Positions 27,118 to 36,763 of a stretch of 47,713 nt of DNA are shown here, piece after piece. A program made the translations under genes and the position numbers. This DNA comes from an uncultured Bacilli bacterium. Lineage in GTDB: Bacteria > Bacillota_I > Bacilli_A > RF39 > UBA660. The DNA lies in the NCBI GenBank assembly GCA_944358725.1, contig CALVRS010000059.1, positions 1-47,713 of the forward strand, written 5' to 3'. Below the pieces are notes generated by a model. It was not told the origin of the DNA, searched no databases, and saw only the letters and a list, made by a program, of their open reading frames with translations. The first letter of the stretch is position 1. Every line of letters begins with the position of its first letter.

Positions 27118-27119
27118 TA

Positions 27120-27572
27120 TTATTTAAGGATAGTTTTATTTGATGTTTTACCAACAAAATAGTCAATTGAAACATTATAATATTTTGCTAGTAAGTAAAG
27201 CTTTGATATTGGGATTATTGAGTTTCCGCTCTCATAATTCCAATATGTTGATTGTTTGTCGCCGATGATGTTGGCGGCTTTTTCTTGAGATAATTTATTT
27301 TCTTTTCTAATTTGTTTAATTCTTTGTTTTAAAGTGTTTAAGTCAATATTTCCTGGATATGCTTTTTTTATATCTGAAAGTCCAGTAATATAGTCAAAAT
27401 TTACTTTAAAATAATTTGCTAGTAGATTTAATTTTTCTAAAGGGAAGTTACTTCTTCCATTGGCATAATCGAAATAATTATCAATGCTTATTTTTAATAT
27501 ATCAGCAATTTCTCTTATTTTTAAATCATTATCTGTTCTTAAGTCATCAATTCTTTTAAATTTTATTAACAT
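27120..27572 (-). CDS. XRE-family regulator with two tandem HTH domains
   Basis: Two HTH_3-like halves: 'LKIREIADILKIS...NGRSNFPLEKLNLLANYFKVNFDY' and 'LSQEKAANIIGDKQSTYWNYESGNSIIPISKLYLLAKYYNVSIDY'. Confidence 0.8.
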   Translation of the reverse strand: MLIKFKRIDDLRTDNDLKIREIADILKISIDNYFDYANGRSNFPLEKLNLLANYFKVNFDYITGLSDIKKAYPGNIDLNTLKQRIKQIRKENKLSQEKAANIIGDKQSTYWNYESGNSIIPISKLYLLAKYYNVSIDYFVGKTSNKTILK

Positions 27573-27679
27573 ATAAGCTCACCTAAAATAATTGTAAATT
27601 TAAATGAGCTTACTATTGACTTTTTCGGAGCTATTGGATAAAATAAAAATAGAAAATGTTAATATAGAGGATGATGGTA

Positions 27680-28240
27680 ATGAAAAAAATTATTAAAAGT
27701 AGAGTGTTTTGGTGTTTAATTACAGTTTTAGTTGTAGGAACTGTTAGTGTTGCAGCAGCGACATATTTTCCTTCTAATCAAGTAACTTATGATAATAGTA
27801 CAAGTGGACTTTCTTCAACTAATGTCCAAGGTGCGATAGATGAGCTATATGCGAAATGTGATGGCTCAATTGGTGGTGGAGATGTCGTATCAATTGCAAC
27901 TACGGATAGTATTCAGTTTGTTTTAACTAGTGATGGTACAGTATATTTTTGGAATAATAATTATCATGAATTTAGACAACTGGGTAATATAGGTGAACCA
28001 TGTGTATCAATAGCAGCTGCGGATACTTCGAATAGTTATTCGGTATATGTATTAAGTAGTGATGGTACGGTATATTTTTATAATTGGAATTATCATGAGT
28101 TTAGGCAACGAGGTAATTTAGGTGTACCTGCTGTATCAATAGCTGTTGTGAATGATACACCTTATTTAGTAACCAGTGATGGTACGGTATATTTTTGGAA
28201 TTGGAATTATAATCGTTTTTCGATAAGAGGCAAAATTTAG
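27680..28240 (+). CDS. membrane-anchored protein: conserved 'NVQGAIDELY' head plus three ~43-aa RCC1-like repeats
   Basis: TM anchor, then 'AATYFPSNQVTYDNSTSGLSSTNVQGAIDELY'. Three repeats of 'SDGTVYFWNxNYHEFRQxGNxG'. TTGACT-17-TAAAAT promoter at 27616-27644. Confidence 0.55.
   Translation: MKKIIKSRVFWCLITVLVVGTVSVAAATYFPSNQVTYDNSTSGLSSTNVQGAIDELYAKCDGSIGGGDVVSIATTDSIQFVLTSDGTVYFWNNNYHEFRQLGNIGEPCVSIAAADTSNSYSVYVLSSDGTVYFYNWNYHEFRQRGNLGVPAVSIAVVNDTPYLVTSDGTVYFWNWNYNRFSIRGKI
27755..27850 (+). repeat. 96-nt segment shared with 36170-36265 (about 90% identity)
   Basis: By hand alignment there are 10 mismatches in 96 nt. It encodes the conserved head of two otherwise unrelated proteins. Confidence 0.85.
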
Positions 28241-28270
28241 ATATAATGAAATACTAAAAATTCTAAGATT

Positions 28271-28909
28271 TTAAATCTTAGATTTTGTTATTATTTTTGA
28301 TAGTAATTCTTTAGTTTTTTTAGGGTTATTTTTATAATTATCTAAGAGATAATCACAGACTTTTGGATAATCCAGATAGTTATGAGCTAGATTTATGGCT
28401 GAATTTTTATCAATGGTTTTTTCTATGATATTTATAGCGAATACAATAAGATCTTCTATATGATGTGTTTTTAAAATGTTTTGTATTTTATTTGTTATAA
28501 GATTTGTTTGCCATTTTTCATTTATATTTTGATATAGAAAATTTAATATTTGTTTATTTTCTTCGATATATAAAGAGTTATCTTTTTCAAATACAGTTTG
28601 AATTAGATTTAAAAACCTTTTAAAGATATTTTTGTTTTTTAAATATGGTGCTATTTTATTTAAAATATTATTTAATAGAGTTTGTTTATCTTTGTCGGTT
28701 ATCCACAGTTTAAAATCATATATTTCAAAGATGATTAGTTCTAATAGCTGATAATTTTCTTCTTTAGTTTGATATTGATGTTTTGAAATAAAATTATTGA
28801 TAAAATTTTGATATTGCATTAGATTTTGTTTTTCTTTATTTTTAAAAGTATTTTGAAATTCATAATTATATAATATATCTAGTTTTTTTATATTCATTTT
28901 TTTCTCCAT
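28271..28909 (-). CDS. hypothetical protein (N/K/Q-rich, helical)
   Basis: 212-aa ORF with no motif recognised. A bidirectional hairpin tctaagat/atcttaga lies at its 3' end. Confidence 0.4.
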   Translation of the reverse strand: MEKKMNIKKLDILYNYEFQNTFKNKEKQNLMQYQNFINNFISKHQYQTKEENYQLLELIIFEIYDFKLWITDKDKQTLLNNILNKIAPYLKNKNIFKRFLNLIQTVFEKDNSLYIEENKQILNFLYQNINEKWQTNLITNKIQNILKTHHIEDLIVFAINIIEKTIDKNSAINLAHNYLDYPKVCDYLLDNYKNNPKKTKELLSKIITKSKI

Positions 28910-34820: not shown

Positions 34821-35720
34821 ATGAATGCACTTTTAGAAAAAACTGATAAACCGATTAAAAGACCAAATGATAAAGAATATATGATTTCTATGGCTGACTG
34901 TGTTTTTAAGTCAATTATTCAAGATTTAAAATTTCGAAGATTACTTTCTTTAATTATTGAAGAAGTTACTAATTATTCTCACAAGTTTGTCTATGATAAT
35001 TTAAAATTTATTAATACAGAGCTTCCTGTTAGTAATGCCTTTGAAAGAAAAAAGGTTACTGATATTTTAGCTGAAATAAATGGGACTACTTTAAATATTG
35101 AAGCCAATAGATCTTTAAAAAAGAGTCAAATAATAAAAAATAATTTATATCACCATAAAATAGCTATTGAGCAATATAATTCGGGAGAAAAGTTAGATGA
35201 CTGTGAAGTATTACAGATTAATTTTAATACTATTAAAAGATTTGGTGATCAATTATTTACAAATTTTTCTATGAAAAGTGATGATGGATTATATACAGAT
35301 GAAGAAAATTTTAAAAGAGTTCATATAAATATGGCTAATCCTTTAAAAAAGTATTATAATTTTGGTAAGGAGTCTCTTTCAAAAGTTGAGAAGGCTTTAG
35401 TAATATTTCAACTTATCGATAAGGAAGAGATTAAGAGGTTAGCTAAAGGAGATGAAGATTTAGAAAATATGGTTAAAATAATTGATGATTTAAATCAAAA
35501 CCCTAAAATTATTGGGTTATATGATAAGGAAGAAATGGACGAACTTATGAGAAATACTGATATAGATGAAGCTATTAAAGAAGGTCATAAAGAAGGTCTT
35601 GAACAAGGAATTAATAAAATAGCTAAAAATATGCTTAAAGCTAAAATGGATGTATCAGAAATTGCACAGCTTACAGGTTTATCAGAAAATGATATTATAA
35701 AAATAAAGTCTGAAAATTAA
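34821..35720 (+). CDS. Rpn-family recombination-promoting nuclease / putative transposase (PD-(D/E)XK)
   Basis: 'DCVFKSII', 'DILAEINGTTLNIEAN' and C-terminal 'IAKNMLKAKMDVSEIAQLTGLSENDI' are typical of Rpn/YhgA-like proteins. Confidence 0.7.
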   Translation: MNALLEKTDKPIKRPNDKEYMISMADCVFKSIIQDLKFRRLLSLIIEEVTNYSHKFVYDNLKFINTELPVSNAFERKKVTDILAEINGTTLNIEANRSLKKSQIIKNNLYHHKIAIEQYNSGEKLDDCEVLQINFNTIKRFGDQLFTNFSMKSDDGLYTDEENFKRVHINMANPLKKYYNFGKESLSKVEKALVIFQLIDKEEIKRLAKGDEDLENMVKIIDDLNQNPKIIGLYDKEEMDELMRNTDIDEAIKEGHKEGLEQGINKIAKNMLKAKMDVSEIAQLTGLSENDIIKIKSEN

Positions 35721-35733
35721 AAGGTTTCAGACT

Positions 35734-35949
35734 TTATTTATTGATTTTTTTGTTTTTGGTTCTTTCTAACATATAATCAATACTGACACTATAAAAATCA
35801 GCTAATTTTATTAGTAAATCAACTGGTATATCTCTTTTGCCACTTTCATATAGACCATATTGTTGTCTTGTTATTTTAAGCAAGTTAGCTATTTGTTTTT
35901 GATATAAGTCATGATCTATTCTTAAATCTTTTATTCGTTTAAAATACAT
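35734..35949 (-). CDS. XRE-family HTH regulator
   Basis: 'MYFKRIKDLRIDHDLYQKQIANLLKITRQQYGLYESGKRDIPVDLLIKLADFYSVSIDY'. Start moved to ATG 35949. Confidence 0.8.
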   Translation of the reverse strand: MYFKRIKDLRIDHDLYQKQIANLLKITRQQYGLYESGKRDIPVDLLIKLADFYSVSIDYMLERTKNKKINK

Positions 35950-36076
35950 AAAGTAAGCCCCTTTAATAAATAATAACAATAATTTAATTTTTATCTTTGT
36001 TAAGCATTTATTTGAGTGCTCTATGAAAATATAAAAATAAAACCTATTATAATTTAATTATGGTAGGAGGAAAGTT

Positions 36077-36763
36077 ATGGAAAGAATTATAAATAAATTA
36101 AAAGTTTCAAAGAAAAATATTATTTGTTTTATATTGGGCGCCATTATATTTAGCGCTATTAGTGTGTATGCAGCGACATATTTTCCTTCTAATCAGGTAA
36201 CTTATAATAATAGTGCAAGTGGGCTTTCATCTACTAATGTTCAAGGCGCGATAGATGAACTTTATAATACTTGTTCTTCAGCTGTATCTTCAGGAGATTA
36301 TTTGTATTATGCTGTGAATAGTTATACTAGTGTTGCTATGACAATTGGTCCTAGTGGTGGAAAACTTTATAGATGTAATGTAGACGGAAATAGTTGTACT
36401 AGTGTATATTCTGTTAGTTCTATGAGTAGTATAGATGCAATTTATGTAAATAATAAATATTTATATTATGCAGTAAATAATTATATTCGTAATAGTGGTG
36501 GTACGGCTGTTGGGCCTAAAGGAGGAACTCTTTATAGATGTAATATTGATGGAAGTGGTTGTACAGGCGTAGGTAATTGTACTGATGCAAGTGGTATTGA
36601 CACAATTTATGGAAATAGTGATTATTTGTATTATGCTGTGAATAGTTATACTAGTAATTTTCAGTCAATTGGTCCTAGTGGTGGAAAACTTTATAGATGT
36701 AATGTAGATGGAAATAGTTGTACGAGTATTAAAAATATTGGTGGTACTAGTAGTTTTAGTTAA
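36077..36763 (+). CDS. membrane-anchored protein: same conserved head plus three 54-aa DUF5050-like repeats
   Basis: TM anchor, then 'AATYFPSNQVTYNNSASGLSSTNVQGAIDELY'. Repeats read 'YLYYAVNSYTS..GPSGGKLYRCNVDGNSCTS'. Units 1 and 3 are near-identical at nucleotide level (36296-36402 vs 36620-36726). Confidence 0.55.
   Translation: MERIINKLKVSKKNIICFILGAIIFSAISVYAATYFPSNQVTYNNSASGLSSTNVQGAIDELYNTCSSAVSSGDYLYYAVNSYTSVAMTIGPSGGKLYRCNVDGNSCTSVYSVSSMSSIDAIYVNNKYLYYAVNNYIRNSGGTAVGPKGGTLYRCNIDGSGCTGVGNCTDASGIDTIYGNSDYLYYAVNSYTSNFQSIGPSGGKLYRCNVDGNSCTSIKNIGGTSSFS
36170..36265 (+). repeat. 96-nt segment shared with 27755-27850
   Basis: See 27755-27850. Confidence 0.85.

Follow-up and report, generated by a model that had tools for sequence, protein, structure and literature searches.

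The stretch of DNA analyzed here (hereafter the window) comprises the 47,713 nucleotides (nt) of contig CALVRS010000059.1, from the draft genome of an uncultured Bacilli bacterium (GenBank assembly GCA_944358725.1), and the element under study is a two-gene module at positions 27,120 to 28,240, in which the gene for an XRE-family regulator faces, across a divergent control region, the gene for a small protein that we call copy 1 (Table 1). A sequence-only reading, made without database searches, had described the module as a divergently transcribed XRE gene with two tandem helix-turn-helix (HTH) domains opposite a protein of 186 amino acids (aa), and the open reading frames (ORFs) and Pfam matches at these positions agree with it. 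The copy 1 ORF lies on the forward strand and ends at 28240; its likeliest start is the ATG at 27680, and the placement of the Shine-Dalgarno (SD) sequence, together with the fact that all 7 full-length public alleles open with MKKIIK at this codon, leads us to take the protein as 186 aa long. It is composed of a signal peptide, a short segment that we term the head, and a tail. As described below, the head is shared by a large family of genes, and the tail is both exchanged between relatives at the end of the head and subject to strong diversifying selection.

The head family and the exchange of tails

The draft genome spans 1.08 Mb in 112 contigs, with 68% completeness and 29% GC. A search of this genome with the signal peptide plus head returned 48 matches and a separate ORF-based search 47 ORFs, many of them at contig ends, as one expects of repeats that interrupt assemblies. 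The module had been presented at the outset as the first of two paralogous copies, the other being the gene at 36077 (copy 2); the shared head holds, but the family numbers some 47 head genes and not two. The tails of 38 of these 47 genes fall in one DUF6273-type cluster (median pairwise identity 49%, the heads having a median of 77%), three are DUF5050-like, copy 2 among them, and copy 1 stands alone, its tail being a singleton in its own genome and of a type not found in 120 genera of the bacterial family. DUF6273 exceeds its Pfam cut-off 27 times genome-wide, almost always in head genes and once in a broken frame. Of the 18 species genomes of this genus, four besides the present one contain 32 to 47 head copies, one has a single copy and twelve have none; one of the four copy-rich sister species is represented by a closed 1.5-Mb chromosome, along which the copies are dispersed. 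More distant heads, 1 to 10 per genome, were found in 8 of 150 sampled other genera of the family, and none at E <= 1e-5 in 266 genomes from 28 other families of the class. All public records with close relatives of the head genes are metagenome-assembled genomes (MAGs) of uncultured Bacilli bacteria, and a literature search found nothing on the head motif or on the bacterial family beyond the phage DUF6273 papers cited below.

The exchange of tails can be followed at the slot of copy 1 itself. From the XRE stop codon through the spacer, the signal peptide and the head (27119-27850), the DNA aligns at ~80% to the loci of two relatives (G003 and G018), with positional XRE orthologues 89-91% identical and DedA ~87-90% identical, and homology stops at ~27850-27856, where the head ends. 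In these two relatives the slot encodes DUF6273 proteins of 308 and 310 aa; in a further relative it encodes a 234-aa protein with three DUF5050-like repeats, flanked by the threonyl-tRNA synthetase gene (ThrRS) on one side and by a homologue of the 212-aa gene that adjoins copy 1, DedA and VanZ on the other. Three tail types are found at one XRE slot, and the junction is always at the end of the head. The architecture put forward in the sequence-only reading, a conserved head followed by a swapped C-terminal domain, is borne out by the 47 paralogues as well as by this slot, and where it had recommended comparing strains, the comparison of relatives does reveal different cassettes downstream of the head. 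A side observation concerns the age of the slots. In a sister species devoid of the head family (L015:14088-15840), an orthologue of the copy 2 regulator, 77% identical, faces a 367-aa protein with an Ig-like domain, DUF6273, a different N-terminus and no head; this XRE slot, therefore, predates the head family.

A divergent XRE-type ORF lies ~100 bp upstream of at least 26 of the 47 head genes in the genome, several of the others being located at contig ends, and of 48 of the 68 head copies with enough upstream DNA among 80 loci from related MAGs. The paralogous XRE proteins are barely alike (median normalized score 0.13), and the notion of modules spreading as units of XRE gene plus cargo was rejected, as XRE and cargo similarity are not correlated (Mantel r = -0.19, p = 0.96). 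The picture that these comparisons suggest is one of ancient, distinct regulators with exchangeable cargo.

The head sequence reported earlier, AATYFPSNQVTYDNSTSGLSSTNVQGAIDELY, is present in copy 1, and its recurrence in copy 2, put at 96 nt and ~90% identity, is confirmed by DNA alignment (89-90% over ~93-96 nt, with ~10 mismatches in 96 nt). The DNA on both sides of the head does not align, and the two heads are 94% identical in protein and 89% in DNA. Recent gene conversion was examined as the source of this similarity and rejected: the excess of codon identity at identical residues is modest (0.62 against 0.50 expected from codon usage) and equal in the signal peptide (0.55 against 0.45). 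The ~90% identity is mostly explained by constraint at the protein level combined with AT-biased codons.

The sequence-only reading had also placed heads of this form at the N-termini of phage tail-fibre and tailspike proteins, and had advised a search for the motif genome-wide and in phage databases. Besides the 47 genomic copies, this search returned phage tail-fibre matches that make the link real, but not a specificity for the N-terminus in phages. In a tblastn search the head matches tail-fibre genes of Clostridioides difficile phages (~50% identity, E 6e-4 to 1e-2), and it also matches residues 22-43 of gp68 of Faecalibacterium phage Taranis, a DUF6273 protein annotated as the target of a diversity-generating retroelement (DGR). 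Among 1.84 billion representative proteins there are 1,826 matches, the best of which are large proteins with the motif in tandem: a head-like 35-aa repeat occurs in up to 44 tandem copies in a 5298-aa protein (P0159), tandem arrays are present also in P0160 and P0161, and a 317-aa example carries five 35-aa repeats of the form '..V.YDNT.SGL.AT.VQ.AIDE.'. The multi-repeat proteins match PHROG 2137 'tail fiber' (positions 214-254, E 1e-9 to 1e-11); a single head alone reaches only E 0.11. Pfam holds no family for the repeat and gives spurious sub-threshold matches only. Judging by these matches, the head corresponds to a single unit of a repeat that phage tail fibres carry in tandem, and the repeat itself appears to be an undescribed and widespread fibre repeat. 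The context of the head genes is not that of phage tail fibres, their neighbours being housekeeping genes and an export signal being present. Moreover, tblastn with a whole DUF6273 paralogue matched none of 50,697 phage records, and on that evidence the head genes have undergone no recent exchange with known phages.

The DUF6273 tails that dominate the family are modelled as C-type-lectin-like. The top PDB matches of the model are the IgA peptidase of T. ramosa and the C-terminal domain of Legionella Lcl, matches to C-type lectins are weak, and the phage matches are DUF6273 proteins. In phages this domain has been described as C-lectin-like and as a DGR target in receptor-binding proteins (PMC10743442, PMC11792537), with the variable regions mapping near its C-terminal end (PMC11792537).

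Copy 1 had been taken for a membrane-anchored protein, a claim that is probably wrong. Its N-terminus comprises a basic n-region (MKKIIKSR), a 16-residue hydrophobic core and V24-A25-A26 before A27, and by rule it has the basic, hydrophobic and small -3/-1 elements of a type I signal peptide. All intact head-gene copies carry a signal peptide, and a valine at -3 with an alanine at -1, ahead of ATYF, recurs in 43 of 43 heads examined in the genome, a signature of signal peptidase I that fits better than a permanent anchor. The N-terminus is thus probably a Sec-type signal peptide, cut after V-x-A. No lipobox ([LVI][ASTVI][GAS]C) is found, there being no cysteine at the cleavage region; the one within the hydrophobic core follows a W, L or F and is not a conserved residue of the head proteins. 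An LPXTG-type sortase motif followed by a hydrophobic tail is likewise lacking, the C-termini reading ...RFSIRGKI or ...G.G...PY.I...

A propeller-type tail under diversifying selection

The protein sequence of copy 1 does contain the three repeats of ~43 aa claimed for it. Successive SDGTVYF motifs lie 43 and 39 aa apart, the resulting blades measure 39-43 aa, and the three units are 42-69% identical to one another; Tandem Repeats Finder detects no tandem repeat in the DNA of the tail. AlphaFold2 models the tail as 12 strands in 3 blades (predicted local distance difference test, pLDDT, ~90), and the blades of the model are four-stranded, antiparallel and radially arranged, as in a beta-propeller. 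In Foldseek searches the model aligns over ~137 columns to one half of six-bladed Kelch-type propellers and of the designed SAKe propellers (E ~1e-7). Structure prediction had been proposed as a check on the reading of the repeats as degenerate RCC1 or propeller blades; it yields a propeller-type half ring and upholds the second term. RCC1 membership (PF00415/PF13540) fails at Pfam thresholds, RCC1_2 scoring 16.9 bits against a cut-off of 22 and the blades being three and not seven. WD40_RLD scores 30 bits against 150, and neither DUF6273 (PF19789) nor DUF5050 (PF16472) gives a Pfam match on copy 1. The modelled fold is best described as Kelch/RCC1-like blades. Relatives carry one, two or three blade-like repeats after the head. 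Three blades cannot close a ring alone, and the protein would therefore have to pair with other chains.

Selection was assessed on the 7 full-length public alleles and on four contigs with the gene order dcd - XRE - copy 1 - 212-aa gene - DedA. Variable sites amount to 0.7% in the dcd region, where the ratio of nonsynonymous to synonymous polymorphism (pN/pS) of dcd2 is 0.06, to 1.1% in the XRE gene (pN/pS 0.00, with 0 nonsynonymous and 15 synonymous changes in 4 strains) and to 1.0% in DedA (pN/pS 0.05). The 212-aa gene, with 2.5% and a pN/pS of 0.23, exceeds these other neighbours in variable sites. The copy 1 tail reaches 8.9% variable sites and a pN/pS of 2.2-2.4, and the value of ~2.3 is confined to the tail. 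As its synonymous divergence (0.03) equals that of the flanks, the nonsynonymous excess does not stem from the import of an old haplotype. Diversifying selection on the copy 1 tail is strong.

The variable codons concentrate in one loop region per blade (Table 1), with further ones at 76, 78, 115 and 157-158, and on the model each of the three blades carries them in its A-B and C-D loops. Since these loops share a face in a four-stranded antiparallel blade, the variable loops of the modelled tail lie on one face. Many of the codon changes require two or three base changes, and the alleles form two classes (F-NN-HE-R and A/V-QD-KK-N) with blade-wise mosaics. Among alleles of a DUF6273 paralogue (C21:2797-3744, P0123; alleles P0156-P0158) variation falls mainly in an eight-residue patch before RPVVYLSS, with the variants PTNINLST, QVSLYFDI and DVSLYFNI, near the C-terminal end of the domain.

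Hypermutation of the copy 1 tail by a DGR was rejected for the present data, on account of a broken reverse transcriptase (RT), the lack of a template, the mosaics and sites without A, since at several of the variable positions A is absent from every allele. The only RT match in the 68%-complete genome is a fragment with two in-frame TAG stops on a contig other than the window (C10:3024-3596), beside a gene pair that is presumably RelE/DinJ-like, as named by eye; no link between this fragment and the head family was found, and blastn revealed no template-like repeat in the same draft.

Control regions and neighbouring genes

The 150-aa XRE protein matches HTH_3 (PF01381) in two stretches, at 71.4 bits against a cut-off of 23 (E 6e-20), and we propose that it serves as the private regulator of the copy 1 slot. 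The 8-bp inverted repeat (TAAGCTCA/TGAGCTTA) that had been reported at 27574-27612 of the divergent region is present and exact, occurs once in the window and is matched 0 times in shuffles of it; its left arm overlaps the SD of the XRE gene itself (GGTGAG, minus strand). As a conserved operator it was rejected, its conservation across relatives being only partial: an AGCTC...GAGCT core survives in one related spacer (L101), and in those of G003 and G018 the repeat is degraded. For an operator the repeat constitutes weak evidence. The spacer as a whole, promoter included, is mostly conserved across four relatives, so that we take the spacer as the control region and regard the 8-mer pair as unproven. 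The spacers between XRE and head genes differ from slot to slot and many carry repeats of their own. An inverted repeat stronger than in dinucleotide shuffles (p <= 0.05) is present in 7 of 24, and one spacer has a palindrome with 19-bp arms directly after a near-consensus promoter (TTGACA-18-TATAAT).

A subfamily of head genes lacks an XRE partner. Upstream of these genes a conserved hairpin (AAACAAGTAATGATTTATCAAAAAAATTACTTGTTT) precedes a poly-T run, 17-34 nt long and variable in length from locus to locus; GTGATATCTTG and a ribosome-binding site come next. Placed beside an extended -10-like TGATATCTT, the run looks like a contingency tract prone to slippage; within the species, the only second contig ends at the tract. 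Just upstream of some head genes lie ORFs of ~26 codons that encode a hydrophobic, signal-peptide-like peptide, such as MKNKAVEFIKSYLLGLVLALLFVYFM; they might be vestiges of an earlier N-terminus, or else code for small membrane peptides.

Downstream, copy 1 converges with a gene whose product has no Pfam, NCBIfam or PADLOC match. This gene is a singleton in the genome, found at the copy 1 slot in some relatives only and absent from G003 and G018, and homologues of its product (~78% identity) adjoin a head gene in other assemblies. The hairpin between the two genes, whose arms TCTAAGATT and AATCTTAGA are followed by a T-run, falls under the GC threshold of the terminator scan and is a possible two-way terminator.

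Module 2, in the same window, offers a counterpart to copy 1. Its regulator is 89-94% identical in three related genomes (G003, G018 and G009), and the module is conserved in position: its protein is 115 aa long with a single repeat in G003 and G018, and 228-229 aa long with three in two further species, G009 among them. Five public contigs encode one and the same copy 2 protein, in contrast to the hypervariable copy 1. DUF5050 (PF16472) scores 30.4 bits on copy 2, above the cut-off of 27. The repeat domains of the two copies had been called unrelated, which holds for their sequences but perhaps not for their folds, as both may be of the blade type: copy 1 by its model, and copy 2 through DUF5050, which we take to be a blade-type repeat family. 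Abutting module 2 is an Rpn-like gene that reaches 30 bits for TIGR01784 (NCBIfam), under the cut-off of 52. The genome contains 16 such ORFs, many cut by contig ends; for 10 of them a head gene lies no more than 1.5 kb away, and the Rpn-like genes may be linked to cassette exchange. In the closed genome of the relative G009, a pair of genes encoding 368 and 332 aa is found twice within ~9 kb (G009:C1:~1507300-1516300; L014, L019). One pair interrupts the Rpn-like gene beside module 2, and for this reason it is probably an insertion element.

Table 1. Position and basis of the features of module 1, of module 2 and of related loci. Positions without prefix refer to the window; G, C and L denote genomes, contigs and loci.
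Feature	Position	Strand	Basis or remark
XRE-family regulator, 150 aa, two tandem HTH_3	27120..27572	-	ORF and Pfam
Divergent control region, 107 bp, between XRE gene and copy 1	27573..27679	.	
Inverted repeat arms TAAGCTCA / TGAGCTTA	27574-27581 / 27605-27612		exact match
Promoter-like site for copy 1 gene, TTGACT, 17 nt, TAAAAT	27616-27621 / 27639-27644	+	promoter scan 10/12
SD AGAGGA of copy 1 gene	27666-27671	+	8 nt before ATG 27680
Signal peptide (probable), aa 1-26 of copy 1	27680..27757	+	-3/-1 rule
Head ATYFPSNQVTYDNSTSGLSSTNVQGAIDELYAKC, aa 27-60 (34 aa)	27758..27859	+	family and phage matches
Tail, aa 61-186 and stop codon, modelled as three Kelch/RCC1-like blades (half-propeller)	27860..28240	+	AlphaFold2, Foldseek
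Blade 1 hypervariable loop, codons 90-99	27947..27976	+	variable codons 90, 93, 94, 96, 97, 99
Blade 2 hypervariable loop, codons 133-142	28076..28105	+	variable codons 133, 134, 136, 137, 139, 140, 142
Blade 3 hypervariable loop, codons 172-177	28193..28210	+	variable codons 172, 177
AT-rich hairpin TCTAAGATT / AATCTTAGA, then T-run, between convergent genes	28262..28282	.	read from sequence
Convergent gene, 208-212 aa, no family match	28271..28909	-	ORF
Rpn-like gene (PD-(D/E)XK recombination-promoting nuclease / putative transposase), abuts module 2	34821..35720	+	
XRE regulator of copy 2, 81 aa, one HTH	35734..35979	-	ORF, Pfam
Copy 2, same signal and head, three DUF5050-like repeats	36077..36763	+	Pfam
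XRE-less poly-T head genes, own genome	G000:C102:250-352, C43, C44, C39, C85, C12		
XRE-less poly-T head genes, related loci	L025, L044, L046, L052, L097		
Hydrophobic ORFs of ~26 codons, own genome	C19:~17640-17790, C38, C58, C106:~11690-11770		

A proposed repertoire of exported binding proteins and rival readings

On balance, we favour a reading of copy 1 as an exported, oligomeric binding protein under XRE control, occupying one slot of a lineage-specific and diversifying repertoire. According to this reading, the two-HTH protein would most likely bind the 107-bp spacer and repress both the TTGACT-17-TAAAAT promoter and its own gene, and each member of the family would be switched on and off by its own XRE regulator. 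Once expressed, copy 1 would be exported and cut after A26. The head, with its short predicted helix, would act as a neck that oligomerizes or docks chains, and the three-blade tails would pair, for instance two chains forming a closed six-bladed ring, so that the variable face could bind an external ligand, possibly a glycan or another surface ligand. Each member is built of a probable signal peptide, one fibre-repeat unit and an exchangeable domain that would serve in binding. The slot, made up of XRE gene, spacer, signal and head, is kept over evolutionary time, and its tail would be replaced by recombination with the head as a homology arm; the family would in this manner supply many specificities, renewed both by tail swaps where the head ends and by selection acting on the loops that bind. 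Family size, protein architecture, fold, tail exchange and the pattern of selection are established by the comparisons above, and export with cleavage, oligomerization, the binding of a glycan or surface ligand and XRE repression are inferred from them.

Several points weigh against parts of this reading. That the XRE protein represses, and does not activate, is an assumption drawn from how small XRE proteins commonly behave. As the best of its 98-nt AT-rich spacer, the 8-bp repeat is borderline (p ~0.05); four of five strains have it intact and one has it mutated, and orthologous spacers in three related species or assemblies retain it only in part. Cleavage is read from the -3/-1 rule, with an uncleaved N-terminal anchor as the less probable alternative, and the copy 1 protein bears no cell-wall anchoring signal. 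The helix that AlphaFold2 predicts over NVQGAIDELYAKC of the head is of low confidence, and no solved structure was matched by the head profile or by the five-repeat protein; oligomerization through the head is for these reasons put forward by analogy with fibre repeats and collectin necks.

A more ambitious version, which we regard as rather unlikely, would add a system of slot-and-cassette variation to the favoured reading: in a walled gut bacterium of small genome, some 26 or more ancient and mutually unrelated XRE regulators would each define a fixed expression slot, and the conserved signal and head would serve as a recombination handle for trading phage-derived cassettes between slots and strains, perhaps with help from the Rpn-like nucleases and with a second subfamily switched by hypermutable poly-T tracts. 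If true, such an arrangement would give the cell a changeable set of exported binders, and thereby a new way for bacteria to vary their surface or adhesion in a programmed manner.

The phage affinities of the family also lend themselves to other interpretations. It is conceivable, if improbable, that the proteins are anti-phage decoys or receptor masks, exported look-alikes of phage receptor-binding parts that would bind the receptors of their own cell or the incoming phage and block adsorption, with their diversification driven by an arms race against gut phages. The head as a phage tail-fibre repeat, the use and hypermutation of DUF6273 by gut phages in their receptor-binding proteins, the strong diversifying selection on the copy 1 tail and the all-or-nothing paralogue numbers between sister species would all suit a decoy; nonetheless, PADLOC has no match for the exported proteins (its scan of defence models returning generic HTH matches only), the copy 1 slot does not co-locate with known defence genes, the copy 1 tail is modelled as a propeller and not as a phage-type domain, and the whole DUF6273 paralogue is unmatched among the phage records searched. 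Alternatively, the genes might be inert leftovers of prophage tail fibres or phage-tail-like particles with no cellular role, an explanation that the phage-fibre type of the head and the broken RT gene elsewhere in the genome could evoke, but which is very improbable and largely refuted. Phage fibres lack a signal peptide, whereas one is found on every intact copy; the copies lie scattered between housekeeping genes and away from any phage structural genes, and the ORFs are intact, with strong purifying selection on the XRE partners and positive selection on the tail.

Lectin-like bacteriocins are known in Pseudomonas, and the family might consist of bacteriocins or interbacterial effectors that dock to the surface of competitors and then harm them, each kept silent by its XRE regulator until induced. 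We consider this a long shot, less probable than the decoy. Its members are seemingly exported, small, lectin-like, polymorphic and linked to repressors, as would be expected of bacteriocins; yet no toxic or enzymatic domain is found in any member examined, and the modules are two-gene units lacking a conserved immunity-type partner, the 212-aa neighbour being a singleton that G003 and G018 do not possess. Furthermore, 47 such loci in 1.5 Mb would be without precedent.

Polymorphic families of exported binding proteins are a known kind of system, and the favoured reading finds partial likenesses in several of them. Variable surface proteins with homopolymer tracts in their promoters are well known from the Vlp, Vsp and Vsa families of Mycoplasma. 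The family described here resembles them in its wealth of paralogues within a small, AT-rich genome, in a conserved export signal and N-terminus followed by a variable C-terminal part, and, in a subset, in a poly-T of 17-34 nt just upstream of the gene. It differs from them in that it lacks a lipobox, in that most members stand under a private XRE gene and not under invertases or tract length, and in that the organism has cell-wall genes, judging from an MraY-like ORF identified by eye. In the phage DUF6273 receptor-binding proteins and DGR targets (Taranis gp68, 'tentaclins', Mtd-like), a motif of the YDN..SGL..NVQ.AIDEL type likewise precedes DUF6273, and variation also falls near the C-terminal end of the domain (PMC10743442, PMC11792537). 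The present genes, in contrast, are chromosomal, encode a signal peptide, occur in ~47 dispersed copies, each with an XRE gene or a poly-T, and come with no working RT or template repeat that could be found, the copy 1 tail being, on its model, a propeller.

At the level of individual parts, the lectins RSL of Ralstonia and BambL of Burkholderia are oligomers of partial propellers, and copy 1, with too few blades per chain to close a ring, would likewise need to assemble; the symmetric designed propellers SAKe and Pizza are a further likeness, SAKe being among the best structural matches. None of these shares sequence similarity with copy 1, the likeness coming from the predicted fold, and they lack the additional head of phage-fibre type. 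The divergent XRE/Cro-CI repressors of phages (CI/Cro) and the C-proteins of restriction-modification systems offer the same arrangement of an HTH_3 protein ~100 bp from its target, with promoter repeats in many slots, but here the copy 1 regulator has two HTH domains in one chain and some 26 or more unrelated XRE proteins attend a single cargo family. Lastly, the collectins (surfactant protein D, mannose-binding protein) place a short helix directly before a C-type-lectin-like domain, and fragments of collectin neck plus carbohydrate-recognition domain figure among the weak fold matches of the DUF6273 model (probability <0.1); here, by contrast, there is no collagen region, and trimerization would be an analogy. 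None of these nearest systems combines a fibre-repeat head, exchangeable lectin-like tails and private XRE regulators.

For uncultured gut Bacilli with genomes of ~1-1.5 Mb, the family is a heavy investment: at about one gene per kb, we estimate that roughly one gene in 30 belongs to it in species with about 32-48 copies, and sister species of the same genus have none. This investment, together with the swapping of tails and a pN/pS above 2 on one face of the modelled domain, makes these proteins the main candidates for outside recognition, be it of glycans of the host, of phages or of other microbes. The ~26 small XRE regulators and their promoters would, in turn, amount to a natural set of orthogonal regulator and promoter pairs. 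More generally, the family is a clear case of cells making use of a phage fibre repeat and of a phage receptor-binding domain.

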